A DNA stretch of 56,161 nucleotides from Psammoneis japonica (GCA_008632985.1 QPGO01000127.1:186001-242161), one strand, 5' to 3'; positions 12,301 through 52,069 are shown, numbered from the stretch's first letter. The notes: generated by a model from the letters alone, not told the origin. Numbers and translations: made by a program.

Positions 12301-12317
12301 CAGCATGGCACAGCATG
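9316..12317 (+). pseudogene. Glycosyltransferase family 8 (glycogenin/GUX-like) pseudogene, TE-interrupted and hypermutated
   Basis: Decayed GT8 motifs across frames: 'DCIHGAVALGASI', 'TCAKMMALGLAECKCVVFVDASALAVGPLDELLDC', 'HFNMGSML', 'SDQIFLNHVHP'. Consensus Tyr positions read Cys/His. The 5' part at 9316-9663 is inferred. Confidence 0.75.
9664..10975. mobile_element. Non-autonomous TIR DNA transposon, 27-bp perfect TIRs, 4-bp TSD AAGC
   Basis: GATGTGTTTTCATCCCAGGTGAGAAAC at 9664-9690 and its reverse complement at 10949-10975. AAGC at 9660-9663 and 10976-10979. Confidence 0.88.
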
Positions 12318-14167: not shown

Positions 14168-14258
14168 ATCATTTTGGAATGAGATCCCATGGGACACAGT
14201 CCGGTCAAAGGATCATGTTGTCTTTGACATTCGTTGGTCTCAATTTAAGCATCCCCAA
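14168..14258 (+). repeat. ~90-bp dispersed repeat, second copy at ~24831-24920
   Basis: Both copies contain CGGTCAAAGGATCATGTTG and end in CAATTTAA(G)CATCCCCAAG; probably a decayed TE terminus. Confidence 0.75.
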
Positions 14259-15139: not shown

Positions 15140-15570
15140 TGCAGTGTGCCTCGCTGCTGGACAACACGGCGAGACCGTGCATGAGCCTCTTGTGTGTGGC
15201 AACGTAGTGTTGTTAACACGCACCTGGGAAGCACGACCACAGGAGGGCGTGGCTCCAGGTCTCAGGCAATTCCAGATGGATGCTGAGAGAGCATCCGTGT
15301 GAAGCACACTAGCCCGTCGTCTGGCCCACGATGGCAGCGTGATTCCACACGATGACATCACTCGTGCATGGCGCGTGATGGCTTCATTCACACGATCCAC
15401 AATGCGAGTGCACGATCGATTCAATGCGATCCAAATGCGAACGAACAGGGATTTGGCAAGATTCCCCATTCGCACGATCCCATTTTCTCTGCTCTGAACT
15501 GGCCCACAATTTTCACAATGACAAAGTCGTAACACATCTTCTTTTCAGCGCCCAGTGCATGCACAGGGCA
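15140..15570 (+). repeat. 5' LTR of Gypsy-1
   Basis: Direct repeat of 22437-22867. Confidence 0.95.
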
Positions 15571-15664
15571 CAGCAATGTTGCTCCCGCACATTGTGCGAG
15601 GTGACGAAATCTGCAGAAACGAAACTGCGAAATGTTGGCAGGACCGACAAATCTTAAAACGACC

Positions 15665-18600
15665 ATGAAGAAGCGGATTGAGCCACCGACTCCATTTGCA
15701 CGGCCAGAGAAGAAAGAGCTGCAGCAAGGCGAGTGCCAGACGTTCAAGCTGCGTAACAACCCCACTGATCCGGACAGTCCAATGCACAAGATGGGCATTC
15801 CGCACCTTTCTGCGGCTGCATGCAAGACACTCCTGATCTTTCTGTGCAACGTGGATCGCGTGCACGAAGGACAAAACATCACGACCGGGCCAGCGAAATT
15901 TGCCCTTGTGCGTGACCTGCTGCAGGGCGATGCTCTGACGTCATTTGACAATGCCGCTGACAAGCAGGCATCCCAAACCAATGCTGCATGCGCAGCATGC
16001 GTCGCAAAGCTAAAGGAAAGTGTCTTCCCACATGGGGCGGCACCATTGCAGAAGCGTTGTCTGAGGCGCTTCATGTGCAAGCCCGCAGAGGTTTCTGCTC
16101 GTGACTGCGTCGCGAGGGCTGTTGAAATTAACGGCCACATCTCTCAGTTTCCACCCGTGACGGAGGATGGAGAAGCACCGGCACCATCACCTGATGACGA
16201 ACCATGCAACATGTTCAAGTGCGGTGTGCCGAACGCATGGCAGAAGTTCATGACGCTGCAGAATTTTGACCTGTTGGTGCGTGCTGTCGCCGAATTCATG
16301 CAGTTCTGTGAGCGCATCGAGCAGGTCGAGCTTGCCGAAGGTAACCAGGACCAACATGCTAAGGTTCCACACAAGCGGGGACGTAGAACGGACAATCCTG
16401 AGTCATTGATCACGACCCAACGGAACACCCAGAAGTCGTGCACGCTGCACGGGACTAACTGTGGACATCATGCGGAGGATTGCCGTCAGCTCAAGCACCA
16501 CACGGTGCCAATCTCAGTGACATGGCATCGCAGAAACATGTTCTTTGTGCCAGAGACACACATTTATGAACAATGTGTTTCGCTGGCAGCACTGCCGACA
16601 GATTTCTCTTTTTTCCACACTTCACCGTGACGAAAAAAATGGTGAGTCGCCGTTGCTTTCGACGATGTCGTTCGCCAGAAGTGATGAGTGCGAGTGTGAT
16701 GTTTCAACAAATTGTTGCCAATCAATGTCAGCACTGACGACATCACCAAAAACATCACACTCACACTCATCAGGAGACCGTTTTTGGACGATGCCACTGT
16801 TGGCACCGCTGCAAAGCAAAATGGCATGTGCAGCTGCTTTCGACGATGTCGTTTGCCAGAAGTGATGAGTGCGAGTGTGATGTTTTGACAAATTGTTGCC
16901 AATCAACGTCAATGCCAATGACATTGATAAAAACATCACACTCATGTTCATCAGGAGACCGTTTTGTGACGACCCTGCTGTTGGCACCGCTGCAAAGCAA
17001 AATGGCACGTGCAGCTGCGCTGTTGATGACACAGTTTGCCGAAAACAACACGTGTGAGGACCATGTTTTGATGCAACATTGGTGTTCAATGTCAATGCCA
17101 ACCACACATGCAAAAACATTGCTCTTGCACTCATCAGGAGACCGTTTTGTGACGACCCTGCTGTCTGCTGTTGTCGCCGTGACAAATGTTTCAGCATGTT
17201 CCCTCGGCGAGTCAAAAGTTGGGAATGCTCGTTGCTTGTTCACTTTGGCTCTTGTGGTCAGCTCTCATGCTGTCTTGTGGACACATGGGAATGGAAAAAT
17301 GGTGCTCACGAAGCGCACTGCCATTTGGTGGTGGCTTTGATGCGCCCAGACCAGTCCATCTCGTCGTTTTTCAGCATGTTCCCTCCACCGAGTCAACAGG
17401 CAAGAACACTCATTGCGCTTTCACTTTGGCCCTTCTAGTCATCTCTCATGTTGTCTTACAGACACATGTGAGTGCAAAAACAGTGTTCAGGGAATGCATT
17501 TGGAGGCCCTCTGATGGCTTGTCCCGTCTCTTCCGTTCGCCGTCGGCAGTTTTCGGAAGGTTCGCACTTCAGTGCGTCATTCCAGTTCCTCTCTTTGCAC
17601 CTGATTGGCTTGATGTTTGCCACAATGACATGCAAACAATCCACAAAAAACAACTGTGTTGCACTGGGTTTAGAAGTTCTTCAGACAGCAGGAGCGACTA
17701 GCCACCCCCTGACCTTGACGACCAAATGCGCCCAAAAATGCCAAGTTCCGGCCTCTCCTTGTGCCACCAAGGTCGCAAATTGCAATGAGTCAAACATGCA
17801 TCTCGTCATGACAACCCAAAACAATGTTGGATGCACTGTTGCAATGCGGCACTCTGCACCGTTCCCAGCCCCACAAGCGACCGGCAACTGCAGACCGAGG
17901 ACCAAAGCTCGAAACAAAAATGTTGTGTTCCAGCCTCTCATTGCACCACCAAGACCGCATGCTGCAATGACTCAAGCACACATCTCGTCATGACGACCCA
18001 AAGCAACACTGGATGCCCTGATGCAGTTTTCTGCATCATTTCCAGCCCCACAAACAACCGGCAACCAACAACCAGAGAAAACAAAAAACCTCCATGTCCA
18101 TCTAAATGCCAAAGAAACATGAAACCTTTGGAAGATTCCAACAAAACAACTGCACCACCAAACTCAGCGTGTTCGAATCACCTTGCACCAATGTCATTGA
18201 CGCCAAAATGTCGTCCCACTGATGGCCGATTTGTGAACAGAGACAAGTTGCGGAGAAAACAAAAAACTACCCTGTCCATCCAAATGCCAAAGAAACACAA
18301 AACCTTTGGAAGACACCAAAAAAAAACCAGCACAATCGTGCTCATTACACTCGAATTGCCTTGAATCAATGCTCTTGACCCTGTGACATTTTCCCAGTGA
18401 CGGTGCATTCATGAACGCCGTGCCGCCATGGTTGTTTTGTTCTCGCCTTTTTCACGAGTCCAGACAGTTTTTGAGGTTGTGGGCCCAAACCACACTGTGT
18501 CGCTCCGCGCGCAGAAAAAAAGCACCGTGACCACGTGAAACGTGTCAAGACTGGACGCTCCAGTGACGGAGGCAGCAAGCCCAATGCAAAACCTCGGAAT

Positions 18601-18741
18601 GAGGAAGATGTCAATGCTCTCATCGGATCGAAGGTCGAGGAGTTCTTTGCCAACGCTCAGAAAAAGCGCAAGGCACGCGAGGAGGAGCTCAATCACTTCC
18701 GCGACCTCAACTTGAGTGATTCCGAAGATTCGGGCGCCTGA
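15665..18741 (+). pseudogene. Gypsy-1 gag, split by the 16501-18529 insertion
   Basis: Gag-like ORF ending in a CxxHxxxxxHxxxxC knuckle. Removing the insert plus one TSD restores the frame (..CRQLKHHVKRVK..). Confidence 0.8.
16501..18529. mobile_element. Non-autonomous DNA transposon with CAC...GTG termini and 4-bp TSD ACCA (Chapaev/CMC-like), filled with ~180-bp internal repeats
   Basis: Starts CACGGTGC, ends GCACCGTG. ACCA at 16497-16500 and 18530-18533. Superfamily assignment is inferred from termini and TSD length only. Confidence 0.8.
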
Positions 18742-21700
18742 GAAGGGGGCCGACACGATGCAGGCAGTTTTGGCACATTGGATGAATGTGTGAATGAACA
18801 ACTGAATTACCATCGTACACGTGTTGCAGGCCAATCCCGCAAACGAGTTAAAAAGACTCATCTTGCTCCAATCTTGTTTACAGCTGTGAACACTAAACAT
18901 GGCAAGGGCAAGACTCAAACCATTAAGGCACTACTAGATAGTGGCGCCAGCAGTGCTCTACTCGACAGTCGACACTGTAAACGTCTGCGAAGCCATTCAA
19001 CGGCTGAGACAAACTGGACTACGGTAGCAGGCTCGTTCAGTACGTCTAACGACTGTACCGTTAAATTTTGGTTACCAGAATTATCCGAAACTGCAGAACT
19101 TAAATATACCGTCCACGTACACAACGGAAAGTTGGGCAAGTACGATATGATTATTGGACGTGACATTCTGGAGACATAAGGCATTGATATTGTCTTCTCT
19201 AAACAGATGATAGAGTGGCCATTAGTCAATGGAGAAGTACCAATGAGGCACGTAGATGCTACGGTGGAAACCTCCTTCTATCTTCAAGATCCAGAAGGCT
19301 TATCTTCGGAAACCGACCGGATTTCGCGTATTTTAGACGCTAAGTACGCGCCGGCCTGCCTCGAGGACATAACGCGAGGGACAATAGGACATTCTATAGT
19401 TCAACAAAACGACCTTTTGGCACTATTGAAACGCCATGAGTCCTTATTTGATGGGACATTAGGAGAATGGAAGGGAGAACCCTACCATATCCAACTCAAG
19501 GAGGGTGTAGAACCACACCACGCTCGTCCGTATAAAGTACCTCGTGCGTACGAAGCTACGCTACGCAAAGAAGTAGAACGCCCAGTGCGTGTCGGTGTTC
19601 TCAAACGCGTTAACCGATCCCAATGGGCAGCTCCATCATTTATCATGCCGAAGAAAGATTTAACGGCACGCTTTATTAATGATTTGAGAGAGCTGAATAA
19701 ACGGATCAAGCGATTGCCTCATCCGATTCCTCACATCCAAGATGTGCCACTTGAGCTCGAAGGCTTTGTGTGGGCTGCATCGCTGCATTTAAACATGGGC
19801 CATTGTCACACCCGATTGGATGCTGATGGCAAGAAGCTCTGCACGCTCATCTTCCCGTGGGGCAAGCATGAGATGCAGGCATTGCCCATGGGATTGTGCA
19901 ACTCGCCAGACATTTTCCAAGAACGCATGTCAGGCTCATTTGAGGATCTGTCGTTCGTTCGAACGCACTTGGATGACCTTCTCGTCGTGACGAAAGGCAC
20001 CTGTGAAGATCACCTCAACAAACTTGAAGAAGTTTTGTTGAGGGTCCAGAAAGCAGGACCAAAAGTCAACGCAACTAAATCTCACTTCTGTCAAACCCAG
20101 TTGGAGTGCTTGGGTTGTCTGGTCAACAGAGACGGAATGCGACCAACACCTGACAAAGTCGACGCCATTGAACGAATCGCGACCCCAACCAACAAACGCG
20201 GCCTGCGCTCATTTGTTGGCATGGTGAGCTGCTGCCGCGACACATGGATTAGACGTTCTGAAGTCTTGGCTCTGCCCAACACGACTCGCAAGCGAGACTG
20301 TCAAGTGGGAGTGGACGTCCGTTGAAGATGAGGCATTCGAAACCGTCAAACGGGTGATGTCGGATGATGTTTCATTGTCACATCCCAATTTTAACAAACC
20401 CTTTGAGATGCATGCCGATGCCTCTAAATGTCAATTGGGAGCAGTCACATCCCAAAATGACAAACCTGTCGCCTTTTACAGCAGAAAGCTCAACAGTGCG
20501 CAGTTAAATTGTGCAACAACGGAGAGAGAATCACTCGCCATTGTGGAGACGTTGAAAGAATTTCGAACGATTCTCCTTGGTCATCGTGTGATTGTGTGTG
20601 CTGATCATAAAAAATCTTGCGCACAAAGCACTCAACACCGAGCGCGTCATGCGCTGGCGGCTGACATGCGAAAAATGCGGCCCCGAATTACGTTGTGTTG
20701 AGGGCACCCACAACCCAGTCGCTGACGCTCTTGGTCGCCTTCGACCAGCACCCAGCTTGCCTTCCGAGGCCAATCCGGATGTAAAAGACACTCCATCGAG
20801 TCGTCCTTTGCATGAAGCTTTTAATGCAGACGCACAAGAGGAGATGTCTCTGCCCGTTGGCTTCAAGCGCATTCAAAAAGCACAACAAAAGGACAAGCGC
20901 CTGCTCTCACGAGCCAAGGACTCGTCCGACTGCTCCATTCGCGCATGTCGTGGGGGGAGGGTCATCACGACAGTTAATCTGTCATGAGGACAAAATCGCA
21001 GTGCCACAGTCATTGCAGGTTCCGCCCAACTGAATGGTGCCACGAGACACTGTGTCATCCAGGTGAGACACGTGCGGAAACATCTGTTGCCCAGCACTTC
21101 TGTTGGCCTGGTGTGAGGTCTACGGTGCATTCTACGTGCGTTAAGTGCGATCGATGCCAGAAGACAAAACGCCGAACGCAGCGTTGTGGGAAGCCACCAG
21201 AAAAGGTCGCAGAGACAATTCCATGGGAGACTCCATGCACAGACATGACAGGGCCACATGAAATTCAAAGACGCGGAAAGGACACTTTGCAATTGTGGTC
21301 AGTCACAATGATTGACCCAGCAACCGGGTGGTTCGAGATTAAAGAAGTGTCTGCGAAACGCGCAGACGTCGCAGCAAACGTCGTGGAACAAACGTGGCCA
21401 CGCAGATGTCCGTGGCCAACCCAGGTGGTTTGTGACCGTGGGACAGAATTTATGGCAGAATTTAGCCAGATGATTAAAAATGACTGTGGGATTTTGAAGA
21501 AACCCACAAGCAAACGGAATCCACAGGCGAATGCCATGGTGGAACGTGTGCACCAGACACTTGGTGACATGGTGCGTTCCTTTTCAGTGCAGGACATGGA
21601 GCTGGACGAAGATGACCCATGGAGTGGCATCCTCTCCGCAGCAGCCTTCGCTGTCAGAGCTGCGGCACATGCGACCACGCGTGCAAGTCCCATGCAATTG

Positions 21701-22397
21701 GTCTTCGGACGCAATGCGGTTTTGTCTGTTGCCCATCGTGCCAAGTGGAAGCACACAGAAACTAGAAAGCAGAAGCTCATCCACTTGAACAACAAGCGTG
21801 AAAATCAGAAACGCAAGGAGCATCAATGTGCCGCAGGGCAATTGGCACTTGTCAAACAGGAACAATCCTCTAAGTGCGGTTCTGACAGCTGTGCAGGACC
21901 CGCCAGAGTTGTCCGTGCACATGACAACGGCACGTTGCGTGTCCAGAACGGAGCGCTGACAGACGGGTTCCAGTCCTAGGTGGGACTCCGTGTGACATTG
22001 GGCCCGTAGAATTCTACGTGCGAGCTCTGTAGTACGAGAATTTAATTAATGGATGTGTTTATCTTCACTGTCAAATAAACGGCCAAGTTTGTGGTACAAA
22101 TATGCCTCTTGCCACTCGACGTTTTTGCAAATGCGCCTGCCCTACGCGATTCTTAAGACATTGTAGAATCGCGCTGTAACAAAAAATGTCAAAAGTTGTT
22201 GGACGGATCGCTCAATAAGTGTACCGTAAAATGACACAAAATATCGAAAAAATCACGTAGAAATCTACGTGCGCGACATACAACGTGATTCAAAAAACTA
22301 TCGATGTCACAGTTCAGTAGTACGAGGTCCCACCTAGACCTGGAACGCGTCGACAGACACGTGCAATCTACGGCAGATTGCACCCTGTCGCCAGTGA
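18742..22397 (+). pseudogene. Gypsy-1 pol (protease, RT, RNase H, integrase) with stop, frameshifts and Tyr->Cys/His substitutions
   Basis: LLDSGA; LPMGLCNSPDIFQ; THLDD (from YLDD); DASKCQLGAV; HETLCHPG..C..C; DRGTEF; PQANAMVERVH. Confidence 0.92.
21962..22351. mobile_element. MITE (390 bp) inserted in Gypsy-1 integrase, TSD GACA
   Basis: TIR GACGGGTTCCAGTCCTAGGTGGGAC versus the reverse complement of GTCCCACCTAGACCTGGAACGCGTC. GACA at 21958-21961 and 22352-22355. Removal restores GALTDTCNLRQIAP. Confidence 0.9.
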
Positions 22398-22436
22398 GAC
22401 ATCCTGTCACTTAACGGCCCTGATCATGGGGGAGTG

Positions 22437-22867
22437 TGCAGCATGCCTCGCCACTGGACAACACGGCGAGACCGTGCACAAGCCTCTTGTGCGTGGCAAC
22501 GCAGTGTTGTTAACACGCACCTGGGAAGCACGACCACAGGAGGGCGTGGCTCTGGGTCTCAGGCAATTCCAGAAGGATGCCAAGAGAGCATCCGTGTGAA
22601 GCACACTGGCCCATCGTCTGGCCCACGATGGCAGCGTGATTCCACACGATGACATCACTCGTGCATGGCGCGTGATGGCTTCATTCGCACGATCCACAAT
22701 GCGAACGCACGATCGATTTAATGCGATCCAAATGCAAACGAATAGGGATTTGGCAAGATTCCCCATTCACACGATCCCATTTTCTCTACTCTAAACTAGC
22801 TCACAATTTTCACAACGACAAAGTCGCAACACATCTTCTTTTCAGCGCCTGGCACATGCATGGGGCA
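22437..22867 (+). repeat. 3' LTR of Gypsy-1
   Basis: Direct repeat of 15140-15570, followed by TSD TTGT. Confidence 0.95.
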
Positions 22868-24029
22868 TTGTGTGACACCCAGATGTCAGTTTGAAGCAAC
22901 CCAGAAACATTGAAAGGAGAGATGCTTTTGACTTCTGACATGCAGTTCTTGACAAAATGGGACATTCTTTGAAGAGATCAGAGCTGCCGTTGACATCCTG
23001 TCATGTGTGTTTTGTTCTTGCACTTTGGAAAAAATCATTTGGTTCACATGATGATTGTTGTTTGGCATCAAGAGGTGCCTGTTGTCACACCAGTCATGCA
23101 GTGATGCCAAGGCAACCCACAGCCACCATTGCACTGCCAAGGCAAGTGTGCTGAGCAGCACAGAAGACCCCACAGGACTCCTTTTTAGAAACATTGACTT
23201 GCTGGCTCAGCACTCACTCTGCAGAGTCATTGACACTGTGCTCAGTGCTCACAAATTTCAGATCACTGCCTGCACCAAGCCAACTCAATGCTGGCACTGT
23301 GAGTGGCAGAGGAGGTGGCAGAAGTGGCTGACATGGTCATGGCAGAGGCAACAAGAGTCCCAGGTCCTCTGACAAGAACAAGGAGACCAATGACAAGACA
23401 TGCTTTTAGCTTGAGATGAAGTTTCTCACATTTCATCACTGAGCAGCAACACCTGCAATGCAACATGCAACAAAGATGTCAAGGAAAAGGTCATCCAACA
23501 CATGCAGAAAGAATGCATTCAAGGTGTGCATTTGACAAAGTCTCTGCAAGATGTGAAATGCAAGGATTTTAAGAGGCCAAGATGCCAGCCTTGTGAGCAT
23601 CTGCAGCAACTGCATGAAAAGAAGACAGTGTGGAGTGCCAGAACAAGCTGCAACAGAAAGAATGCAAGAGGGGACAAGGAGCTGAAGCAAGCAAATGCTG
23701 TGAGGAGAAGATTGAGAAGTTGAAAGAGAACAAGACAATCATGCTTGCCAAGATTTTGGATGACTGTGCTGCACCAAACAATTCAAACAAAGGGTGCCAG
23801 CAAGCAGACCCCAGTTTCCTTGCTGTTGGATTCTGCCAATGAAACTTGTCCAACTCCTGACATTTGACTCAATGGGTTGACATCCATTCCACCTGCACAC
23901 TTGCCAAGGCCCTTTGATGCGAGGCAACAAGACAACAAATTGCTGCATGATTGCATCTCAAGATTCAAGAATCAGCAAGATGCCACCAAACAATGACTGG
24001 GAGACAAGATGCTGGGTCTTCCATTGTGC

Positions 24030-26265
24030 AAAAGTGCAGTGCAAAGCCCTGCTGGTGTGTGGTCAATGCTCGCAGGCATGGAGCAGACCGCTCATGTCAC
24101 TTTGGCTTGAAGGTTCCCTGCTGCTGCAGGGCAAAGCACTTGGCTCTTGGTTGTGCCCCTGCAACATGTGAGACAGTGGGTGAAATTGAACAGACCAAAT
24201 GACCCACAAAGCACTTGCCCTCACATCTTTGTCTTTTGCCAAAGACAGAAAGAAGGCTTTGCCATCTCCTGATCATGAATTTGTGCCATCGCTTAGCTGC
24301 AGCCAATTTGTGAGATGGCAACAAAAGCAAGCTGGCAAGAGATTTGACAGCTGTTTTTTTTTTGGCAAGAAAAGTGTGGCAGCTGAACTCTGGTTGATTT
24401 CTGTTCTTTGGTTGTTCCAACAATGGAGACAAAGTTGGAGTCAAGCCAATCCAAGCTCTTGTTGTTCCACAGAGGTTGACCAAGCTGCTCAGTGGCAGGC
24501 TCAGTTGGGCTGGCTTGCCAGAAAAGATGAGGAGGGGCAAAAAGAACACAGGCTTGGCAATTCTCAATTTCTGGCTCAGCTGGATGGTCACTCATTCAGC
24601 TGGAACAAGCGAGTCTTTCTCTGGGATGGAATCTGCAACTGATTTCTGGACCTTGGCTCCAGTGCAACAAACTCCATTGCTCCCCTTTTGTTGCTCTGGG
24701 CAGACAAATTCATTTGTTCTTGTTGCCTGCCAGTTGCCACTGACTGAGAGAGTTGACAGGCAGTGGAATTTGCATTCTTGGAGCCTCTCTAATGCTCTGG
24801 AGCAGGGACAGAGCAGGATGTCCAGCACAATCATTTTTGAACAAAACCCCATGGAACATGGTTCGGTCAAAGGATCATGTTGACTTTGATGTTTGTTGGT
24901 CACAATTTAACATCCCCAAGTTTTTTGTGTCACATTGCCACCAATTGCTGCATGCATGCATTCACTCATTTGCAGCTCAGTTTCACCAGTCACATCATTT
25001 CATCCCCCACACCTGCCTGCTTTGAACAACATGACAAAACAAATGGCATTGCCTTCTTCATGGAAAACATCAACTTGTCGAGGTTGTGCTTTGCACCTTT
25101 AAAATCTTCACATTGAAGGAAAACCAACCAACCTTTCACTGTTCCCACACCTTGAAAAGTTCCTTGTTGTCCTTCAAATGAATCCATGCTGCCCTTGATG
25201 TGAAGCAGTTGGCAGGGCAAGTGACCACATCACACACAGCTGGAGCCAACAAATCATGCATTGAGCATTGTGCCCTCAAAAATGCCGTGATCATCAATGA
25301 AAGATGTGGCAAGAAATGCACACTGTTTTGCTCTGGTCATGGCTTCCAAACACATGCACTGTGGAGGTGCTGGGCACCAAGTTTTTGGCACCATCATTCC
25401 TCCAAAGGATGCTCCAGCAGTCTTGCTCTGTCTTGCAAGCACTGTTTCCTGTTGCACTCTTTCACACAGCTGTCAAAAGCCCCTCTTTTAATTCTTGCTG
25501 TTTAGTGATGCCCAAGTTTTCTTGCTTGGAGCAGGCCGGCTCTAACTCTCACCTCACAACATTGTGCACAAAAAAACATGCAATTGGCCTGTCATTTGTT
25601 TGGGTGGTGGTTGCCATCTGTGATGGATGATGGTGGCCACAAAGAGATGACAATTGGTGGCTTCCATGTGGAAAAGTGCAGCAAAGCATCACTGTGTGAT
25701 CAATGCTCACAGGCGTGAAGCAGACCATCTGCGGCACTTTGGCTTGTCAGCTCCCTGCTGCTGCAGGAGCAAAGTGCACCAGGCTGGTTGTGCACCCAGC
25801 ATGACATTTGAAGATGGCAAGTGAAAGCAAATGCAGGCCAAAGAACTCACAAAGTGCTCACACTTGCATTTCATGTTTCAGCTGCAACCAATTTGTGAGA
25901 TGGCAAACAAAAGCCAGCTGGCAAGAGATTTGACGGCTGGCTTTCCTTGTTTGGCAAAAGTGGCAGCTGGCCGAACTGGTTGGTTTCTCTTCTTTGGTTG
26001 CTTTGTCCAACAATTTAGCCAAAGTTAGAGTCAACAAGCCAAGCTGTTGTTGTTTCTGACAGAGGCCATCCAAGCTGCTTGGTGGCTCAGCTGGGCTGGC
26101 AGCACAGAAGAAGGGGAGCAAACACAACACAGGCTTGCATTTTCTCAATCTCTCCTTGGCCCCAGTGCATCAAACTCCCATTGCTCTCCTTTTGTTGCTC
26201 TGGGTGAACAAATTCATTTGTTCTTGCTGACTGTCAATTGCCGCTGAGAGAGTTGACAGGCAGCA
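24030..26265 (+). repeat. Diverged direct duplication (~24030-24770 versus ~25670-26265) of decayed sequence
   Basis: Collinear shared blocks, e.g. CCAATTTGTGAGATGGCAA..GCTGGCAAGAGATTTGAC and CTGAGAGAGTTGACAGGCAG. Confidence 0.8.
25021..25085 (-). pseudogene. Short decayed fragment of the 3' end of an M8 protease gene
   Basis: Aligns to ~32676-32735: VFYKEGDAIYFV becomes VFHEEGNAICFV. Confidence 0.7.
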
Positions 26266-27919
26266 GGTTTTTGCCAGCACACAATCTGCACAGTCTGTGT
26301 GGAGCACAAATTTGTAAATTTTTCTGATGCTTTCACATGTCATCAAATTTTCTCTGCAGAGTGGTTCGCCAGCTGTGTGTTGCTTTGCTTGCGAGTCTCT
26401 AAGAAAGCAGCATTGCAAGTGTGTGCACAAGGTTTTGTGCTGAGACTGGGTTTGCAGCAAGCACAAGGACACTGAGCAGAAGGAGGAGCCACAGCTCCAC
26501 ATCATCATTTGTTGATTGTCTCACTGACCAGAAATCTGACAATGACAAGACAGCCGCAACAGTTGCTTGAGAATGACTGAACAAATGAATGTGAGATTGA
26601 CTTTTCCAATCTGAGTTTTTGAACAACAATGAGACAATTTTAACAGCTGTGCTCATGTTCACACCCATCTCTCACTGCTGCCTTGTTGAGTTGTTGGCTG
26701 CCCTCAAGAACACAGACAATGGGGGGGGCATGTGCACTGCCAACTTGCAGCAGCTTTCATGGTGGGAAATGTTCTGCAGAAAGAAGTTGACACCTGTCAT
26801 TTTCCCAAACAAGTGCGAGTCTCACAACTTGGCTTGGCCCTGGCTTGGGTGCTGATTGCTTTTTTGCATGCCACAGCAGACATGGCCACAGCACCAGCTC
26901 AAGCTTTGGTGGTGTCAGCAGCACCAGCAGTGGATGTTCTTGACAATGCACCACTGCACATTTGTGGCATTGCTGATGTTGGCACAAGGGCTTCTTTGGC
27001 ATTTCACAATGAACATGTTGTCTTGGGAAACATTGCAGGTCATGGAGAGAAACTCAGACATCCAGGAAATGGTGAACAGAGTGGGGCAGTGGGGCTTCAT
27101 GAAGCATCTGCATTTTTTGTTGGATGCAATGCATGTTGGTCTTGAGACAGGAAATGTTCCTTCATTTGTTGTGGCCTGGAATGTGTGAGCATGGAAAAAA
27201 GAGCAGCCTGTTCAGCAGCTCTGTCATGTCATGCAGCATGTTGTGGTGAGATTGTGCACACACTGCAGAACAGCTGCAGCTGCAGCAGGCAGTGCTCTTG
27301 GCATGTTGTGCAGTGCTGCTGGCAAGCACTCTCACTCTTGACCCAACATGTCTTGTGTGCCAACATTGTTTGCCATGGAGGTGGTTGGGTCTGATTCAGC
27401 CTTGACTTTGAGGACAGAAGAAGTGCAATCCTTGGCAAGGTGAGATGCGCGACATTCATGTTTTGCTTGCAATGCTTGTGTGTGTGATGCACCAGGCTTG
27501 TTTGCCACAGAGCAGAGCTGGCACTTCAGGCATCTGATGGATGGGATCTTGAACATTGAGCCCTTTTTCTTTGGCTTTGTTGCCCCTGGCAGAGGAGTTC
27601 TGAGTGCTCACAGTGCTGCCACTGAGGGAGCATGGTGCATGGTGAGCTTTATTCTCATGGAGAGTCTTTGCTTCTTTGGGTGGAGCCATGATGGTTTGCT
27701 GCTCTTTTGCAGGAGAAATCCACTTTTTTCAGATTCCATGAGGATCCTGTGCCATGGTTCTCAGCTTTGAACATGTGTTTGCAGATGCCAACATCTGACC
27801 CATCTTTTCACAGTGAATCTTGCACTTGTTCTTGATGTCTGTGATGAAATCTGAACTGGCAAACATGAGGTGAGCCTCTTGAACACAGTGAGGATTCTTC
27901 AGCAGTGAGATGGAATTTT

Positions 27920-28435
27920 TGTTTGATGAGGATGGGAACCATCCCAGTCAATTTGGAGACCAAGGCATGGAGTGTTGAAACCTTGTGCGTGTGCCCAGAG
28001 GAACTCAGTCAGGACATGCAAAACAACAGGCAGTGGCCTCTCAAGCTGCTGGGGATGAGCCAGACTTTGCAAAAGGCAACAATCCTGATGCCCGTGCACA
28101 GCCTTTGTCATGGATGCTGCTGCAGCTTTCCCTTTTTCATCTCATGGGTGGAGCAACACCACCATTTTCAGAATGGATCAAACATTGGAGAGAACATCCA
28201 AACTCCTGCAATGATGTCGTGAACAAGTTTTAGCCAAGGAAGGCACTTTGGGTGTCAGCAAGTGTCCCAACAGATTCCAGGTGTCAGGGCCTTGGGTTTG
28301 CAGTGCCTCAACTGTGTTCATCAAAATCTGCATGAGAACCAAGGAAATGCTCTGTGAAAGATGAGTCTGGCAGCAGTGTGTCTGGCAAAATTCCTTCTCA
28401 CGCAGTTTTCCTCACATGCCATGATTCGCTTCATT
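27920..28435 (+). pseudogene. Decayed partial copy of the MsrA-like gene (3' half plus 3' flank)
   Basis: Collinear with ~6397-6955; TpA and most CpG replaced by TpG/CpA. Confidence 0.93.
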
Positions 28436-28954
28436 TCACCCGCCAAAGTCTGCCAAAAGCAGACATTTGCTCGATGTTGCTGTCACGCATTCTCCATGAT
28501 TTGTTGCAAAATTGTCACAATCTCTTGATGGACTCAACATTGGCAAAAATTGTGGACACTCTTGAGTGAAAAGATCTGTCCAATGAAGGCGCTTTGTGTG
28601 CCAGTGAGAGTCCATGCGGATTGCTGGACTCGCCACCTGTTGGCATTGTGCTGCAGTCCTTGCAGTGCTTTGACATCATGCAAAACTCAATGAAACCATC
28701 CATGGCACAGAGAAGGTAAACAGAAGGATCACTGCTGTGTGTGTGTGTGCTGTGGAAACAAGATCTGTTCATGCATGCTTCCAATCAATCTTCCATCCTA
28801 ATGTGAGTCATTTGACATGCAACAAGCATGAGTCTGCAAAGTCCATAAAAATGCCAATCAATTTTTCACCCTCAAATCAATGGGCAAGCTGCAACACGCA
28901 TCAGAGTGGCACCACATGACAAGTCGTTTGCACGACTGGCGCCTGCTTCATGAT

Positions 28955-29746
28955 TCATGACATCCACCACAACATCAGAGGAACAGCAAGGAGGAGCATC
29001 ATGGCAAGCAGCGCCGTCGCATGCAAGGAGCAAGACATGCCAGAAGAAGTCAAGGGCATCTTCTCTGTTGGCAAGGGCGTCTCCACTGGCAAGGGTGTCT
29101 CTGCTGGCTTGAACACAATTTCATCATCGCAGGCAACAACAGAGTGATCCGCAAGCTTGAGAATCAAGCCCATGTTGTCGCACTCAGCCGAGACCAAGTC
29201 ACCACCCGGAGCATTCTTGCAGTTTGGCAAAGTCAGTGGATCAGACATGAGGCCACAGAGTTCACAGCCAAGACACTCTGTGCCTTTGAGCGCTGCCTCG
29301 CATTCGGTCACAAAAGTCCCAAGACCACAGAAGAGCTTCATGCAATGGGACTCTCCATCAAGGACATCAGTTCCCGCAGTGTAAAATGTGCAAATCAACT
29401 CGGATTCGGGGCAGCCAGCAAAGAAGTCATGCTCCACAATGTGCTGCATTGTTCTGCACACTTCGCCGCAGCATGCTTCTCCTGTTGCATTGCAAGAAAT
29501 GCTGTGTCTGCCGCTGCAGCTGCAGCTGAAAGGACAGCCACACATGTCTTGACCTTCTGATTCGTGTGTGTCTTCGAGCTCCTCACAGGTTGAAGAATCC
29601 AGGCAGCGACCATCTTTCACCATGTCTTGGAAAATTGGAACGAGCTTCATTCCCACACAATGCATCATCGCAGGTTCGACAACACATGACACGTCGGTGA
29701 TGGCACCGAGAATCATCACCAGGGATGGAGAGGACACTTTCACCAT
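28955..29746 (-). CDS. Secreted Cys-rich, probably GPI-anchored surface protein; hypermutated and probably non-functional
   Basis: Open 263-aa frame with signal-like N-terminus, Cys-rich core, ETPLP repeats, then SSG and a hydrophobic C-terminus. Only one Tyr; sequence nearly TpA-free. Confidence 0.65.
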   Translation of the reverse strand: MVKVSSPSLVMILGAITDVSCVVEPAMMHCVGMKLVPIFQDMVKDGRCLDSSTCEELEDTHESEGQDMCGCPFSCSCSGRHSISCNATGEACCGEVCRTMQHIVEHDFFAGCPESELICTFYTAGTDVLDGESHCMKLFCGLGTFVTECEAALKGTECLGCELCGLMSDPLTLPNCKNAPGGDLVSAECDNMGLILKLADHSVVACDDEIVFKPAETPLPVETPLPTEKMPLTSSGMSCSLHATALLAMMLLLAVPLMLWWMS

Positions 29747-30220
29747 GTTGACAGTGGGATGCTTTTTCTTGCGTTTTAGTTCTTTGTGGGATTGACAATT
29801 CTGTTGCATCGTTTGCTCTCTCGTACAGCTACGCAGAAATGAATACGATGTACGAGACATCCTTGACAACATGGTTCGCATCGCAAATTGTCATCATTCA
29901 TGTTCATCATGACCAACTTTCGCGCTTCCAGCTTTGAGCTTTGTGCTGTCCATCCATCGCGCGCACAAATAATGTACTGTAGGTTGGGCCCTCTATTATT
30001 CTAATTTTCTAATGAATGGATATAACAAATTTATACATTTATATGATCATTATAAAGATATTTCACCAACGACAATCCCGTTGCTCACAATTTTGAAGTT
30101 TTGTCAGTTGTTAGTTGTTTGTTACGATGAGGTTGTTCATTCGCATCGCGATCCCTTCATCTTGATGAAGCCTTCATCAATCCGTTGCTCATACTTTTTA
30201 TGCTCTAGCTATTGTTGACG

Positions 30221-34445: not shown

Positions 34446-35099
34446 GAACTTTGTCCGGGTGAGAAACCCGAGGCACTGCGACTTTGCTGCTGTGAGAATG
34501 TGACGTGGTATCTTACACGGGTTTGACTCTGATGAATCTGTGTACGTGCAAAGAATTCCTTACACGTTGATTCTCGCTGTATGCTCGCAACACCACACGT
34601 TTTTCAACCAACCAAAGAAGGGTCTTTTTCCGCCTCGTTTCCTCTTGATTGCAGGCGCTGGTTGTCATTAACGTCCTTGCGTATTTCGCACGAGTATGCT
34701 GTTGTTTTTGTTGGCTGTTGCTTTTTTTGTGTCTCTCGGCATTTTTCAGAATTTTCTCCCGCGCGCACTTTCACCATCACTGACAAAACACAATTTTATG
34801 AAAAGCATACAGGTATTTATAATATATTTTTTCAATCCGATTCGTGTTTTCATTCAGTTTTAAAAGTCACTAAGGTTTTTATGTTAAAAACGAATTTGTT
34901 AAAGGTGCGGTATCTTTCTTAAGTAGATTCAACCGTTGAAAGTATCCGTTCAGGTCAGTATCGAAATAATTGAGAATAAGAATTTCAGGGACACATATGT
35001 TCATGGTTTTCATCGACAATTTTTCTTGAGACTCCTCTTCATTGTCCCTGCACCAAGAAGCAAAAGTCCATTGTTATAGTGCCACCATGCCCCCCCCCT

Positions 35100-36890: not shown

Positions 36891-37091
36891 TAAACTTTTA
36901 ACACAATGACTGTTATCTACAAGATGCATTAGCCTTGCGGTTGAGGGCAAGATCTTCAATCTCTCTTCTGCATGGCATTTAGAAAGCACTTCAATCATCT
37001 GTGCCGGATCGCTGACAGGTTCAATTCTTTCCTGTTATACTTAGCATCTAGAGAGTGTGATTGCTGGTCATAAAAGTGGCACAAAGATAAG

Positions 37092-40950: not shown

Positions 40951-41144
40951 GATAAAGCGTGGCCTGCCACCGCAGAGGTGGCTCTAGCTAACAAAGCAAA
41001 CAGCAGGCATCGTACAAGAATGGGAAAGGGGTGGACAGACACCGGGAGCAAGTATAATTGAATTGGATGCACGTGCTGAACTAGATATATGGTCCATCTC
41101 TCTAGAAGAATGAATTCTAGTGCATGCCCCCTTTTGAACAGGCC

Positions 41145-44806: not shown

Positions 44807-44832
44807 GGTTGTGTGGATATGGAATAGAAGTG

Positions 44833-47800
44833 TGCCGAGTATCGCGGTCATCTATATTCATTCGTATATTCATTCGTGGGTGTCAACCTGGTGTCAAAAG
44901 TGTCAAAAGGATGTCAACGATGACACTTTCTAGAAACCTCTTCTCCTTTCTCGATACATCTCGATGCCTTTCGAAAGATTGTTTCTTTATATTTCTACGC
45001 GGTTTCTTAGTATTAATTCTACGAGATTTCGGAGTAGCCGAATCTCTTTCATTTCTTCTCACAACATTAGCAACAGTCAACTTTACAACGCTACTTTATA
45101 CTATTACTTGGCGCCACTTGGCATAGTAAATTTACTCCCAAACACTTATTCATCTCTCTTGAGATATATCTACCGATCATATTGTCCTGACCAGACATGT
45201 CAGCAGAAAACTGCCCATTCGAACTTGAGCGTCCTGACCGCTCTGAGGAAGAGCGACGCAAAGACCAATTCGTGTCTTTTGAAAGCCCCATTGATCCTGA
45301 CGATCCAGATGGGCTTAAAACTACGATCGAGGTACGTAAGTTAGCTTCAACTGAACCGGAAGATGTTCTTACCTTCTGGTCAAACTTCGATGAACTTATC
45401 AACGATCTCGGTGCGGCTGAAGGACAGCCACGTTTCCGGCTCGTGACCAGACTTATGACCGGAACACCAAAAGACGACTGGGAAATCGTCGTAGACGATT
45501 ACGAAAACCGCGACCAAGTTACATTCGATACTTGTCGTGAAGAATTTCTACTCCAACACATGGATAGAGAAATTGCCCTTGATGCTAAGGAATGGCTTCA
45601 AAGCCTTAAGAAACCCAGGAACCAAACTGTCAAGTCATTTGTTAATGACATCCGTCGCTTTAATAAGTTGATTAATATCATGCCTACGCCAACCGAAGAT
45701 GACGCCGAAAGAGTTCCGTCATTCACGGAAGCGGAATTATCCGCAATCCTTCGAAAATGTGGACCAAGATCATGGGCCGAAACTCAGACTAAAGCCCGTC
45801 TTCGCAACTTAAACTTGAACGACCAAGCTCAATACTACGAGACTCTCCGACGTATGGAACGACGTGGTGACAAAGGGTCTACCGACAACAACAGACGCAA
45901 CAACAATGGGAATCAACGCAACAACGGTCGACATGCGCGTCACGGCCAGAACAACGACCAAAATCGCGATGCCAGGAACAGGAACCAAAACAATCGTGAA
46001 CAAACATGTCCAATCCATGGCGTTGTACATCCGAACGGTCAAGAATGCAATATCATCCGTCGTGAACGTGAAAATTATGAGCGGAACCGCGCAAATCGGA
46101 ATGCGCCGAATCAACAAAATGACTCTCGAAACGAGCCGACACACCGCCATCCCACACGGAGCCGCACACGGAACGTCGAAAACAATGATGTGGACTCCAA
46201 AGCCAGTCGCTCCGCTTCTAACGATGTCGATAGCGTCGCGTCAGACGATGTCAACGACATTTTTGAAGACGTCACGTCTCTTCTAGACGATTCCATCGAA
46301 TCCGAAATAGAAGACAATCTTACCACGGAAGCGCGTGTCCAGATGATTGATGCTCATTCTGGAATGCACAAGTTCCGTGTTGCTCTACTCGATACCGGCG
46401 CAAATCGCAATTTTGTGAAGCGCTCAGCCCTTCGCGGGATTCCTCACAAAATCCGTAAATGTAACGTTCCCGTTAAAGGCCGTTACAGTGCCGTTAATCT
46501 ACACGAGATTGCGACGCTGACATTGAAGTTCCCAGACTTCGCATCGTCCAAGAAGGTTTCCGTCGATGCTCATGTGGAAGACAAAGCCGTAGGAAAACAC
46601 GACATTATCATCGGAAGAAAAACCGCCACAGAAATGGGACTCGTTTTTGATTTTCGACATCAAACAATCACGTGGGGCGATGTTACCCTATCCATGCGAT
46701 CCAAGGGCTCTTTCGACCAAGTCGAAGTTAATGCAATTCATCCCGGCGATGCTGAATTACCCAAGTTCTTCCAGAATGCCGTCAACCGTCAGGTTCGAGG
46801 TATGACGAGCAATGCGTACGACAAGCACAATTATCGCGACATGGTTCTACGCTGCAAACACCTTGATGACGATCAACAGCACCAACTCATCGAACTCTTC
46901 GGACGATACCCGCAATTATTCGATGGCACACTTGGAGCTGTACCCGGTAAACCCGTCCATTTGACCCTGAAACCAGGATCGCGTCCGTACTGTGCGAAAG
47001 CTTGCACTATTCCGCAAGCGTTACATCCCATGGCTCGCAAAGAAGTGGATGAATTGGAAAAAATCGATGTCACCACGCGCAAACTTCACTCTCCTTGGGG
47101 CGCACCCTGTCTTTTCCGATCGAAGAAAAGCGGTGGTATCCGTTTCTTATCCGATTTACGGAAACTCAACGAGTGTCTCGAACGGCATCCATGTCCACTA
47201 CCTGTTGTCGACGACGTCGTATGGAAAATGAACGGCTTTACCCATGCGACATGTTTGGACCTCAACCGAGGCTACTGTCACTTCGTGCTTGACGACGAGT
47301 CAAAAAAACTCTGCGGTATCATCCTGCCGTGGGGCAAGCATTGCCACAACCGCCTGCCGCAAGGAATCAAACCGGCAAGCGATGTTTTTCAAGCTTACAT
47401 GACAGATGTTTTTCATGATGTGGAAGACATCACAGTCTACATCGACAACATCATCCTCTTTACCAAGAACAACTTCAACCATCACTGTCAACGACTCGAA
47501 CTCGTCTTGCAACGGCTCCTCGCGAACAATCTTCACGTACATGTCGAAGAATCCTATCTCGCCGCCAAGACCGTCGACTGCTTAGGCTGTGCCATGACTA
47601 CAAAAGGTGTTCAGCCTCAGAAAAAGAAAATCCTACCCTTGCTTCGCTTCGCTCGCCCTCAAAACCGTCGACAATTACGTGGTTTCATCGGGTTCGTGAA
47701 TTATTACAAGAAATTGTGGCACCGACGCAGCCACACTCTTACGCCCTTAACTGCGCTGTCATCAGACAAAGTCAAATTCAAGTGGACTGACGTCCACACG

Positions 47801-49735
47801 GAAGCTTTCAATCAGATGAAAAAAATTGTGGCGCGCGAAATCCTCCTCCGATTCCCCGACTTCTCTCAACCTTTCAACATCTATCCGGATGCGAGTGATT
47901 ATCAACTTGGTGCAGTAATTGCTCAAGATTTTGACGATGGCGAATGGCCAATTGCATTCCACAGCCGAAAATTATCTCAAGCGCAACGAAACTACACGAC
48001 AATGGAAAAAGAGCTGCTGTCGCTCGTGGAAACGACCGAAAATTTCAAAAGCATCCTTTTTGGTCATCGATGCTACCCACCCACCGATCACAAAAATCTT
48101 ACATTTGACAAATTCAAGTCAGAACGCATCAAACGCTGGCGTTTACTTCTCGAGGAATACGATTGCTCTTTCGAGTGCCTGCCAGGCCACAAGAATGTCG
48201 TGGCTGATTTTTTGAGTCGCCACCCCATTGTCCAAGTCGATCAAAGCGATTACGAGGAAATGACTTCGTTGGAAATCGATCCTTCAATATTCCCCGTTAC
48301 TTTCGACATTATCGCCGACCATCAAAAAAAAGATTCTGCTCTTCAGCAACGACTCGACAAGTCCGAATCCTACTCAGCCGAACTGTTCAACGGAAAACAG
48401 ATTATCCTTTACAAGAACAAGATTGTCCTCCCTCCAATGCTTTTTCCTGCAGTTCTACGGTGGTGCCATGAAACTCTCTGCCATCCTGGTGCCAATCGCA
48501 CCTGCCAAACTTTGGCTTCACATTTTTACATTCGCGACATGCAGACGAAAGTCCGTACTTTTGTCCGTAAGTGCCGCACGTGTTCCAAATCCAAGCGTAC
48601 TACGGCAAACTATGGCGAATTACCTCTTCCAGATACTGCTTATAAACCTTGGCAGGCAACTCAAGTCGATCTTTTCGGTCCCTGGACGTATGCCGACAAA
48701 AATGGTGTCGATCGCAAAATCAGAGCCGTTTCAATTATTGATGTCGCAACCCGTTGGGTCGAACTCGGCGAACTATAAGTTCAAAAACGTCCGAAGACAT
48801 TTCACTTATCGTCGATCGCGAGTGGTTTTGTCGCTATCCGCGACCAGAAATTGTCATTTATGACAACGGTTCCGAATTCACTTCCGAGTTTACAGATCTC
48901 CTCTACAGTTATGGTGTTAAACCGAAACCTACAACAATCAAGAATCCTCAAGCCAACGCGTTCGTTGAACGTATTCATCAAGTGATAGCCGATTCTCTCC
49001 GTGCGATGGATCTCCCTTCTCGCGATCATGATGAAGACACAATTCATGGAATTTTGCAATCCGTTGCATGGGCCTTGCGCAGTACCTACCATACTGCCCT
49101 TATGTCGTCTCCCGGACAAATTGTCTTCGGTCGAGACATGATCATTTCTGCTACTTATCTTGCGAACTGGAAAATGATTAATACCCGTCGCAAGCGCGAT
49201 GTCCTACGCAATAATCTCCGCGAAAACGCAAAACGTCTTACTTACGACTACAACATCGGCGATCAAGTCTTCGTTATGACCAAAGACATCCAACGCAAAC
49301 TCAACACCAAAGATGGTCCTTTCTGTATCGTACGTGTCCATACCAATGGAACCGTTACCATCCAGCGCTCGCCTCACGTCACTGAACGTATCCATATCCG
49401 CCGTCTTCACCCTGTCTTCTAACGTCTCAATTGGGGAAGCGAGTGCCGAGTATCGCGGTCATCTATATTCATTCGTATATTCATTCGTGGGTGTCAACCT
49501 GGTGTCAAAAGTGTCAAAAGGATGTCAACGATGACACTTTCTAGAAACCTCTTCTCCTTTCTCGATACATCTCGATGCCTCTCGAAAGATTGTTTCTTTA
49601 TATTTCTACGCGGTTTCTTAGTATTAATTCTACGAGATTTCGGAGTAGGCCGAATCTCTTTCATTTCTTCTCACAATATTAGCAACAGTCAACTTTACAA
49701 CGCTACTTTATACTATTACTTGGCGCCACTTGGCA
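44833..49735 (+). mobile_element. Ty3/Gypsy LTR retrotransposon 2 (young, full length)
   Basis: LTRs TG...CA at 44833-45123 and 49444-49735 with 3 differences, TSD AAGTG, PPT GGGGAAGCGAG. Confidence 0.97.
45197..49422 (+). CDS. Gypsy-2 gag-pol polyprotein, one frameshift near 48765, RT active site YIDN
   Basis: LLDTGA protease, RLPQG and YIDN in RT, DASDYQLGAV RNase H, HETLCHPG..CRTC, DNGSEF, PQANAFVERIH. Confidence 0.93.
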
Positions 49736-50643
49736 AAGTGACGATGAGACGCAAACAACGAATACAAGAGCAAAAGCAACAAGCAACGGCACGACTCAAA
49801 GATGTGCAGAAGGATCTTCGCTGAAGATTTTATGGATTCGTTGAAGAGAAGTTCTGGCCAGCTATGTTTATTATCATATATTCATGACTAAAGATTTAAT
49901 TAAACGAACACATATCGTAGATTCTACGTGGGGTTAGTATGAGACGTAGCTTTGACACCAACACCCACGGCGGCGGCGGCGTTCTCGTCTTTTGCTTGGT
50001 CGCGAAAAGAAAAAAAGCACAATCAGCCCAATAAGATGTGTCTTACAGAGAAAGAATCAAAAGATCGCAAGCTGATCGCAATTGTCATCTATTGACTATT
50101 CGTTTACAGCTTTTGAAGACTTGAAACTCACTGGAAATTTCGAAAAAGCGCATGCCCAAGATCGCCCAAAGATCGATCGTCGGAGCAGCGGGGAATGAAT
50201 CACACGCACCAAAACAACAACGGTGGCGTATGTGGCGTGTGTGGTGGCGTCCGCGTAGTATGATGATGGACCGACATGACAACTTCTGCGGCGCTGTGTT
50301 GACGACGGGGACGATCTGATTTTTAAAAAAGCAGCACACACCAAAAATACAACACAACATGACTAATGACGAATGTGAGTCTTTCATCCAGCTTCTATGC
50401 CATGCACAAAGCATTGTAAGAATCATTCAATATATGTCAATTGGAGAATAAAAGCTCATAACGCCGATTACGGTGTAAGACACATGCACCCAGCTTATGT
50501 TACCCAGCTTTATGTGTCGTTGTTTTTATTGTACAGTACACAAAATGCCCAATTTAAAATAGCAAACAATAAGGCCGACTCCACATCGCAAAAACCAAGA
50601 CGCCAGAATTTGAAAATGATCTGACTTTGGTCACTATTTTTTT

Positions 50644-51579: not shown

Positions 51580-52069
51580 GTGAGATTCTGTTTCAACAGA
51601 ATTTGTGAGACGAGATCATCCTTCTTTTTTTGTCCAATCACGAATCACCAGCAAACCACGATCCACGACCTGACCGCGCATGACCCGCGGTTTGCCGAAA
51701 CTCGGCAACATTCAGGAAACATGACACCACACAACTCCAATCTTCACACTCTGCCGCAAGCCAAATCTGTCCTTGCCACAAGGGCACGGATTCTTGGCCT
51801 TCAGAGCCTGGTGCACCCCAAATTTGGATGGATGGCTTTGTGCAACATTTGGTCATCCTCTCTCCTGCTGTGCACACACCAGCAAGGCACGGCGAGATCT
51901 CTCTCTCCAAGAGAGATGTGTTTTTCTCTTTTTTGAGCTTGCAAAAAGGCTTTTGGTGACAGAGCCAGGTGCACTGCACACATGGCACAGCAGGAGAGGC
52001 TTGCAAGCTCAAGAGAACATCTGTGCGCAAACCACCAATTTCCATGAAAAAAAATGGCTTTGACAGCAG

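Follow-up and report, generated by a model that had tools for sequence, protein, structure and literature searches.

Loss of TpA steps in two Gypsy retrotransposons of Psammoneis japonica points to hypermutation of mobile DNA, with most scars of the younger element probably inherited

The closest described precedent for the pattern reported here comes from mutation-accumulation lines of Bigelowiella natans, for which the text of Mettrop et al. (10.64898/2026.01.13.699255) gives 231 of 302 new nuclear mutations as lying in integrated giant-virus and virophage regions, 230 of these 231 being A>G or T>C, with TpA as the site of every one of these GC-biased changes. The rate stated there is about 6e-7 per site per generation, with only some lines affected, TpA-depleted genes of B. 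natans were enriched for reverse-transcriptase (RT) and DDE domains, and an ADAT2-like deaminase was proposed as a hypothesis. Among open PubMed Central papers and bioRxiv, we found the signature described in this one preprint only; the terms LTR, retrotransposon, Gypsy and CpG have 0 occurrences each in its text, and its supplementary tables may list retroelement genes. Here we analysed a 56,161-nt stretch of the Psammoneis japonica assembly (GCA_008632985.1 QPGO01000127.1:186001-242161, the whole of which is called the window below), which carries two long terminal repeat (LTR) retrotransposons, Gypsy-1 and Gypsy-2. In Gypsy-2, a complete plus-strand element of Ty3/Gypsy type (44833-49735) whose LTRs have TG..CA ends, conserved tyrosine (Tyr) codons of pol have been replaced within one patch (46980..48520, plus strand) by cysteine (Cys) or histidine (His) codons. 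One earlier description of such a process exists, for viral inserts, and LTR retrotransposons are a new target class.

Comparison with B. natans revealed that both cases share conversion of TpA to TpG or CpA on either strand with almost no other changes, rates orders of magnitude above background, foreign DNA as the apparent target, and long-term blocks poor in TpA and rich in CpA and TpG. The two accounts differ in their material, which was new mutations in two viral inserts in B. natans and is LTR pairs, conserved codons and sibling retrotransposon copies here, and, in a feature that the text of Mettrop et al. does not mention, CpG is depleted in the same TpA-poor blocks of this window. Fungal repeat-induced point mutation (RIP) likewise serves as a genome defence that acts after integration and leaves dinucleotide-context transitions and skewed ratios in repeats, but it changes C to T, mostly CpA to TpA, raising TpA and making stops, whereas in this window TpA is destroyed, CpA and TpG go up and stops cannot arise. 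ADAR hyperediting in animals has in common with our case the A-to-G change, the favouring of U or T before the edited base and scars that can be fixed in retroelement copies; in contrast, both strands are hit here in an interleaved manner, AA is spared, and the changes arise in integrated DNA. APOBEC3 editing, by which hosts inactivate retroelements and which can leave near-identical LTRs around ruined genes, differs in deaminating C to give G-to-A changes on retroviral cDNA, on one strand and with many stops, none of which was seen here. In these terms, A:T editing at TpA forms a mirror image to both RIP in fungi and APOBEC editing.

The Tyr replacements were placed by aligning Gypsy-2 pol with two sets of 10 relatives, a close one (50-56% identity, uncultured marine sequences throughout) and a more distant one that takes in diatom proteins. 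Eleven codons with Tyr in at least 9 of the 10 close relatives read Cys or His in Gypsy-2 (codon starts 47003, 47276, 47339, 47345, 47579, 47588, 47960, 48164, 48176, 48221 and 48464), and further Cys/His codons at 47192 and 48503 stand in mixed Tyr/phenylalanine (Phe) columns. Cys or His is found at 13 of the 23 Tyr or Tyr/Phe columns within 46980-48520 (9 Cys and 4 His, interleaved) versus 1 of 18 outside (Fisher p = 7e-4), in agreement with an earlier note on this DNA that had confined the changes to the RT-RNase H-integrase region. All ten peptides that the note had listed were recovered in the 1195-codon open frame at 45191-48778, and its estimate of about a dozen Tyr changes holds in view of the 13 patch columns, except that two of the residues had been over-read: the middle Cys of WGKHCHNRLP stands in a variable column, and at the His of FTHATC 10 of 10 close relatives have Phe. 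In a leave-one-out test over 121 sequences, Cys or His stood at 7 of the 17 deeply conserved Tyr columns in Gypsy-2, whereas the other 120 sequences averaged 0.06 such residues and never had more than 1. Likewise, 78 related metagenome loci had Cys or His in 24 of 1292 conserved-Tyr cells and Gypsy-2 in 8 of 19, while its overall change at conserved columns (27 of 255) was within the span of the close relatives listed (17-31). As judged from these alignments, the Tyr to Cys/His changes are mutational and not due to chance.

At the DNA level, Tyr to Cys is TA->TG and Tyr to His is TA->CA. Of the 266 columns that both sets of relatives conserve, Gypsy-2 departs at 24, with Tyr altered at 7 of 17 columns (all to Cys or His), isoleucine (Ile) at 6 of 11, lysine (Lys) at 2 of 13 and asparagine (Asn) at 1 of 10; 11 of the 24 changes are TA->TG or TA->CA. 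Four Ile to valine (Val) changes are each an A->G directly after a T, and within the patch 3 of 4 T-preceded conserved Ile codons are now Val. Of the 4 conserved Ile codons that follow a non-T base, none became Val. No AA->AG type change was seen at 23 conserved Lys/Asn columns. Because of this Ile context and the spared AA of Lys and Asn codons, the rule is TpA, irrespective of the strand, rather than any A. Inspection of mutated and kept Tyr codons gave no flanking-base rule beyond TpA, and the Cys:His ratio of 21:10, both elements pooled, may hint at a sense-strand bias (p = 0.07). Since a codon-table check confirmed that A>G or T>C turns no sense codon into a stop, the damaged pol is still an open frame.

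Several familiar sources of such changes were considered and set aside. RIP is contradicted by TpA being lost and not gained, the polarity following from the conserved Tyr columns as well as from the dinucleotides of Gypsy-1 described below that read CA in one repeat and TG in its partner (hereafter CA/TG doubles). For the Cys and His codons to have come from arginine by CpG decay, arginine would have had to stand at columns in which every relative has Tyr. Neither a WA motif of the polymerase-eta type nor the U=A preference of ADAR fits with the lack of AA->AG changes among the conserved columns, and GC-biased gene conversion carries no TpA restriction.

The same signature was found in Gypsy-1, a member of an unrelated family with 32-45% amino-acid identity to Gypsy-2. 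It lies on the plus strand and comprises a 5' LTR of 431 nt (15140..15570), an interior with several broken frames and a TpA observed/expected ratio (o/e) of 0.30 (15571..22436), and a 3' LTR (22437..22867). His or Cys replaces the Tyr of nearly every canonical motif of its pol, with 17 of 22 Tyr columns affected, or 16 of 19 by tblastn. The two LTRs serve as an internal control that dates the TpA decay to after insertion. They differ at 34 of 431 nt, with 31 mismatches falling within the network of CG, TG, CA and TA, and 24 of the 34 lie at inferred TpA sites. The paired dinucleotides fall into the classes TA/TA (1), TA/CA (4), TA/TG (4) and CA/TG (8), and for CpG into CG/CG (25), CG/CA (4) and CG/TG (3). 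A CA/TG double needs two hits on one dinucleotide, and 25 of 32 CpG are intact in both LTRs, which excludes a CpG origin of the doubles; therefore TpA was ancestral at these sites. Because the LTRs, identical at integration, now show CA/TG doubles, the process is one that, on this comparison, acts on integrated DNA.

The counts fit 25 ancestral TpA per LTR with independent decay at p = 0.8 each, a model under which 1 site should be untouched, 8 decayed in one LTR and 16 in both (8 of the last visible). Per LTR, about 80% of TpA was lost and about 11% of CpG changed, with 3 mismatches at the approximately 317 other positions. From these figures, TpA removal is roughly one order of magnitude faster than CpG loss and, per base, about two orders of magnitude above other substitutions. 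The two LTRs of one element thus act as independent replicates and give a clock-free measure of the process (~80% TpA lost, 25/32 CpG kept). The Gypsy-1 interior has decayed unevenly, with a TpA o/e between 0.06 and 0.51 over steps of 1.5 kb. In the same element, tandem repeats of about 181 nt (16636-17164) are situated between gag and pol; their copies differ by 13 CA/TG doubles and have no TpA in common, and other repeat pairs in the window again gave CA/TG doubles and no shared TpA.

The composition of the window was also measured. TpA o/e was 0.86-0.90 in the Gypsy-2 LTRs, 0.52 in the Gypsy-2 interior and 0.32-0.39 in the patch; within pol alone, it was 0.50 for Gypsy-2 and 0.43 for Gypsy-1, compared with 0.77 +/- 0.11 (minimum 0.57) for 78 relatives. 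Host-gene stretches, which encode a kinase, an EF-hand mitochondrial carrier, a sulfotransferase, Fam20C and others in genes that are intron-poor and in this not obviously like those of B. natans, had TpA o/e of 0.44-0.74 and CpG of 0.8-1.2 in 1.5-kb steps. The contrast between host genes and repeat blocks is one of composition only, and selection on genes could also keep TpA. Adjoining Gypsy-1, a fossil block at 22868..30000 showed TpA o/e of 0.02-0.14, CpG of 0.02-0.5 and CA/TG of 1.65-2.03, and by composition similar TpA-poor blocks lie at about 10500-15000, 35000-37000, 39000-41000 and 52000-54000. Measured in 1.5-kb steps, the blocks near 10.5-15, 22.5-30, 39-40.5 and 52.5-54 kb gave TpA of 0.02-0.14, CpG of 0.08-0.53 and CA/TG of 1.65-2.03. 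These blocks are complex sequence and not simple repeats, with long spurious open frames that have no Pfam matches, and they are probably, to go by composition, what this decay finally makes of old mobile DNA. In all, 23 of 56 1-kb segments are nearly TpA-free and lie within both thresholds that the text of Mettrop et al. uses for hypermutated clusters. One stretch of TpA-poor DNA contains a tandem duplication (52070-54805, copies of about 1370 nt at 97.3% identity) in which 25 of 27 mismatches are transitions, mostly CpG-linked. With TA->TG/CA changes also present in Gypsy-1, in sibling copies and in large blocks of the window, the earlier note's proposal of a fast, patchy process is supported, and the process is context-specific.

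When these changes reached Gypsy-2 was approached through sibling copies in a public run (X1) and in two further runs, X2 and X3, from the same sample, of which X2 yielded one sibling LTR contig and X3 nothing. X1 contains 52% of the sampled Gypsy-2 words. Since a 5991-nt X1 contig spans the empty site, joining 44827 to 49736 with 5 shared letters and 0 mismatches in 228 + 215 flanking bases, the insertion is polymorphic, being absent or heterozygous in the X1 sample. The family itself is abundant in X1, with 780 contigs placed (202 at >=99%) and a summed depth of 230-2750 compared with 57 in the flanks. Variant places in X1 comprised 478 transitions and 66 transversions; the site counts that follow are those among the 40 of 549 variant rows listed (X1/X2). 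Window TA stood against sibling CA or TG in 16 rows and the reverse in 5, and 6 rows were CpG decay in siblings. Sibling A>G changes were at TA in 8 of 10 rows (base rate 14%) and T>C changes in 8 of 12 (16%), so that 16 of 22 such rows were at TpA.

In 31 rows the whole X1 depth differed from the window. Window-derived TpA losses among them were confined to 45744 and 46187 in gag and 47074 and 48078 in the patch, and none of the 13 Tyr codons was among them. The earlier note had named Cys and His residues shared by siblings as the finding that would speak against its reading; with no Tyr site wholly different in X1 among the rows listed, such sharing is probable. Two short clusters of differences were observed at 47073-47074 (TTA in siblings, CCA in the window) and 48078-48081 (CTATTC and CCACCC), each with one base in a TpA step. 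At 47901, where the window retains the Tyr of a DASDYQ motif, all X1 depth reads TGT; therefore scars pass on through transposition to whole sub-lineages.

The LTRs of Gypsy-2 date the changes from the other side. They hold 45 TpA sites, and the pair differs at 1 of these; CA and TG both occur among the siblings at this site, which makes TA ancestral and places the change of the 5' LTR after insertion. TpA loss since insertion would accordingly be small, about 2-3% and evenly spread as far as these counts go, versus a loss of 57% of the conserved Tyr in the patch. Because only 1 of 45 LTR TpA sites changed, private losses are few and none is at a Tyr site, the patch is most likely older than the insertion and would have been inherited from a partly mutated progenitor. 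The proposal that the process struck Gypsy-2 soon after it inserted finds no support in 44 of 45 LTR TpA kept and about 4 private TpA losses, none of them at Tyr. Non-TpA substitutions between LTRs number 1 in Gypsy-2 and 3 in Gypsy-1, with TpA loss of about 2% versus 80%, counts that are too small for a clock argument in favour of episodic action.

Taken as sequence comparison, these data demonstrate a strand-symmetric TpA->TpG/CpA change in integrated mobile DNA that is uneven between and within elements. The explanation we favour, at a probability of roughly 0.6, is host TpA hypermutation of DNA, with most footprints in Gypsy-2 predating its insertion and having been inherited from a progenitor mobilised in trans. 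A host process would convert A:T pairs of 5'-TpA-3' steps to G:C on either strand (TA->TG or TA->CA), aimed at mobile or foreign DNA and not at ordinary genes. In coding sequence, Tyr codons (TAY) would become Cys codons (TGY) or His codons (CAY), and Ile codons after a T (T|ATH) would become Val codons (T|GTH), so that a crippled pol remains an open frame in which no stops can be made this way. The progenitor would already have been hit in the RT-RNase H segment before Gypsy-2 inserted; alternatively, a scarred, co-packaged sibling RNA could have supplied that segment through template switching. With its LTRs and gag intact, the progenitor could still have been transcribed, packaged and copied with proteins provided in trans; this would explain as well why the surviving scars lie in pol. 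The agent may be an enzyme that recognises TpA in DNA and deaminates adenine to hypoxanthine, or one that oxidises thymine to a G-mispairing base, in which case each event could be read on one strand as T>C. Loci may be targeted by way of their silenced state, which would also explain the slower CpG loss that accompanies the process.

Several observations weigh against this explanation. Damage limited to 1.5 kb of a progenitor requires either a patchy process or recombination, each of them a supposition. The sharing of the Tyr sites with siblings is probable by their absence among the wholly differing rows, which come from the 40 listed. Copy-private T>C changes at the non-TpA positions 47073, 48080 and 48081 break a strict TpA rule, and 7 CpG-linked differences between the Gypsy-1 LTRs could be of either polarity. 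Identity with the B. natans process is suggested by the signature, which is what the two cases have been compared on.

We consider it unlikely that hypermutation instead hit Gypsy-2 itself after insertion, as a patch over RT-RNase H and the integrase zinc region with copy-private Cys and His. Such a course is compatible with the action on integrated DNA seen in the Gypsy-1 LTR pair, with the TA->CA change of the Gypsy-2 5' LTR after insertion, with the similarly uneven decay of the Gypsy-1 interior (TpA o/e 0.06-0.51) and with a process that, according to the text of Mettrop et al., was on in only some B. natans lines. Nevertheless, it would have to have removed 13 of 23 patch Tyr while sparing 44 of 45 LTR TpA and 17 of 18 other Tyr columns, and the approximately 4 private TpA losses relative to X1 are half in gag and half in the patch, with no Tyr site. 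A mutated interior between near-identical LTRs is the expectation of any pre-integration process, among them ADAR-like or ADAT-like A-to-I hyperediting of the RNA before reverse transcription, in which the scars are fixed at integration and the LTRs start identical; the preference of ADAR for U before the edited A (Discussion of Mettrop et al. and general knowledge) would suit it as well. This is improbable, since about one third of the Tyr changes are sense-strand T>C (4 His to 9 Cys) and interleaved with the others, for which editing of the genomic RNA alone is insufficient, no AA->AG was seen at the 23 conserved Lys/Asn columns, and the Gypsy-1 LTR pair acquired the same changes after integration. 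To our knowledge, ADARs occur in animals only, which also counts against RNA editing.

That the pattern stems from systematic errors of base calling or assembly at TpA, caused for instance by DNA modification, is very improbable. Two homopolymer-length differences within 17 nt (48767 and 48783) are typical of long-read assembly, and at about 31 places the whole X1 depth departs from the window, both of which could speak for an artefact. Against this, TA versus TG/CA polymorphism also occurs among contigs of the independent runs X1 and X2, the Gypsy-1 LTRs would need different miscalls at the same sites, and TpA survives in the Gypsy-2 LTRs (22 and 23) and in host-gene stretches (o/e 0.44-0.74). 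Lineage-specific protein evolution, with Cys and His tolerated or adaptive in a functional polymerase, is to our minds scarcely credible. The frame is open over 1193 codons, the 27 changes at 255 conserved columns are within the close-relative range, and the clade already has the unusual catalytic box discussed below; however, an open frame is expected anyway of A>G and T>C, which make no stops, 7 of 17 deeply conserved Tyr are replaced where no homologue among 120 shows more than 1, and the same replacement is found in the unrelated and clearly dead Gypsy-1.

The remaining anatomy of Gypsy-2 was read along the plus strand. A target-site duplication AAGTG flanks the element (44828..44832 on the left and 49736..49740 on the right), as supported by the sequence and by the X1 empty-site contig joining 44827 to 49736. 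The 5' LTR (44833..45123) has 291 nt, TG..CA ends, 22 TpA and a TpA o/e of 0.86, and the 3' LTR (49444..49735) has 292 nt and 23 TpA. Between the two there are 2 substitutions, of which one is CA (5') versus TA (3'), and an indel of 1 nt, just as the earlier note had counted them (3 positions, one CA/TA). Within the first open frame, translation from the ATG at 45197 gives 1193 codons (45197..48778) encoding gag, protease, RT, RNase H and the N-terminal part of integrase, up to a frameshift-made stop at 48776-48778. Pfam matches on this frame were RVT_1 (residues 645-800), RT_RNaseH (890-990), Integrase_H2C2 (1081-1136), RT_RNaseH_2 and a weak Retrotrans_gag. A second frame (48742..49422) encodes the integrase core and C-terminus, with an rve match and 7 of 7 conserved Tyr retained, and is followed by a purine run (49433..49443), probably the polypurine tract, that adjoins the 3' LTR. 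The two integrase frames are broken apart by one-base homopolymer insertions relative to most sibling depth (48767..48783), G 48767 being absent from 448 of 585 sibling depth units and A 48783 from 513 of 585 in X1. Removing both bases joins the first frame to the second in alignment with relatives. This frameshift may be a private lesion of the Gypsy-2 copy or an assembly error in the two homopolymers. A small minus-strand gene has its start codon ATG at 44806-44804, about 25 bases from Gypsy-2, so that the insertion is upstream of the ATG.

The domain order gag-protease-RT-RNase H-integrase is the Ty3/Gypsy arrangement, and together with the TG..CA LTR ends and the 5-bp duplication it is shared with Ty3/Gypsy elements (Metaviridae) of diatoms and marine protists. 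The RT catalytic box (47438-47449) reads YIDN, in contrast to the YxDD of usual Ty3/Gypsy elements. The earlier note had taken YIDD->YIDN as a change in Gypsy-2, which did not hold up: YxDN or FxDN was found in 19 of 120 homologues, including 18 of the 18 closest, which keep long open frames, many YxDN relatives having open frames of about 1400 residues, and the change would be G->A in kind, outside the TpA signature. On the basis of these alignments, the YxDN box is a trait of this clade of Gypsy-like elements and not decay, and the whole clade seems to work with Asn at the final position of the box. The best matches to Gypsy-2 were uncultured marine sequences at 53-56% identity, with named diatom proteins at about 40%. 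In protein searches, the identity of relatives did not exceed 56% for the pol region as a whole, 61% among shorter proteins and 70% for a 150-residue piece, and a 26-base pattern from the patch had no match in the metagenome or viral contigs searched.

For work on such genomes, the pattern has practical consequences. Tests for an "intact ORF" (open reading frame) will overcount live elements, since no stops arise, and dating by LTR divergence overestimates ages unless TpA sites are masked. The window probably shows the long-term end state of the process, DNA nearly without TpA and CpG, while the young, polymorphic Gypsy-2 with its abundant siblings provides a natural system for following the onset of targeting and the spread of scarred copies. 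We tentatively suggest, at less than even odds, that TpA-directed editing, far from being peculiar to two viral inserts of a single chlorarachniophyte, serves as a general defence against retrotransposons in a second marine protist with intron-poor genes, where it would have left about 40% of this 56-kb stretch TpA-free and CpG-poor, would be switched on locus by locus and not in a clock-like manner, and would produce open but dead pol genes that are copied in trans by active elements.

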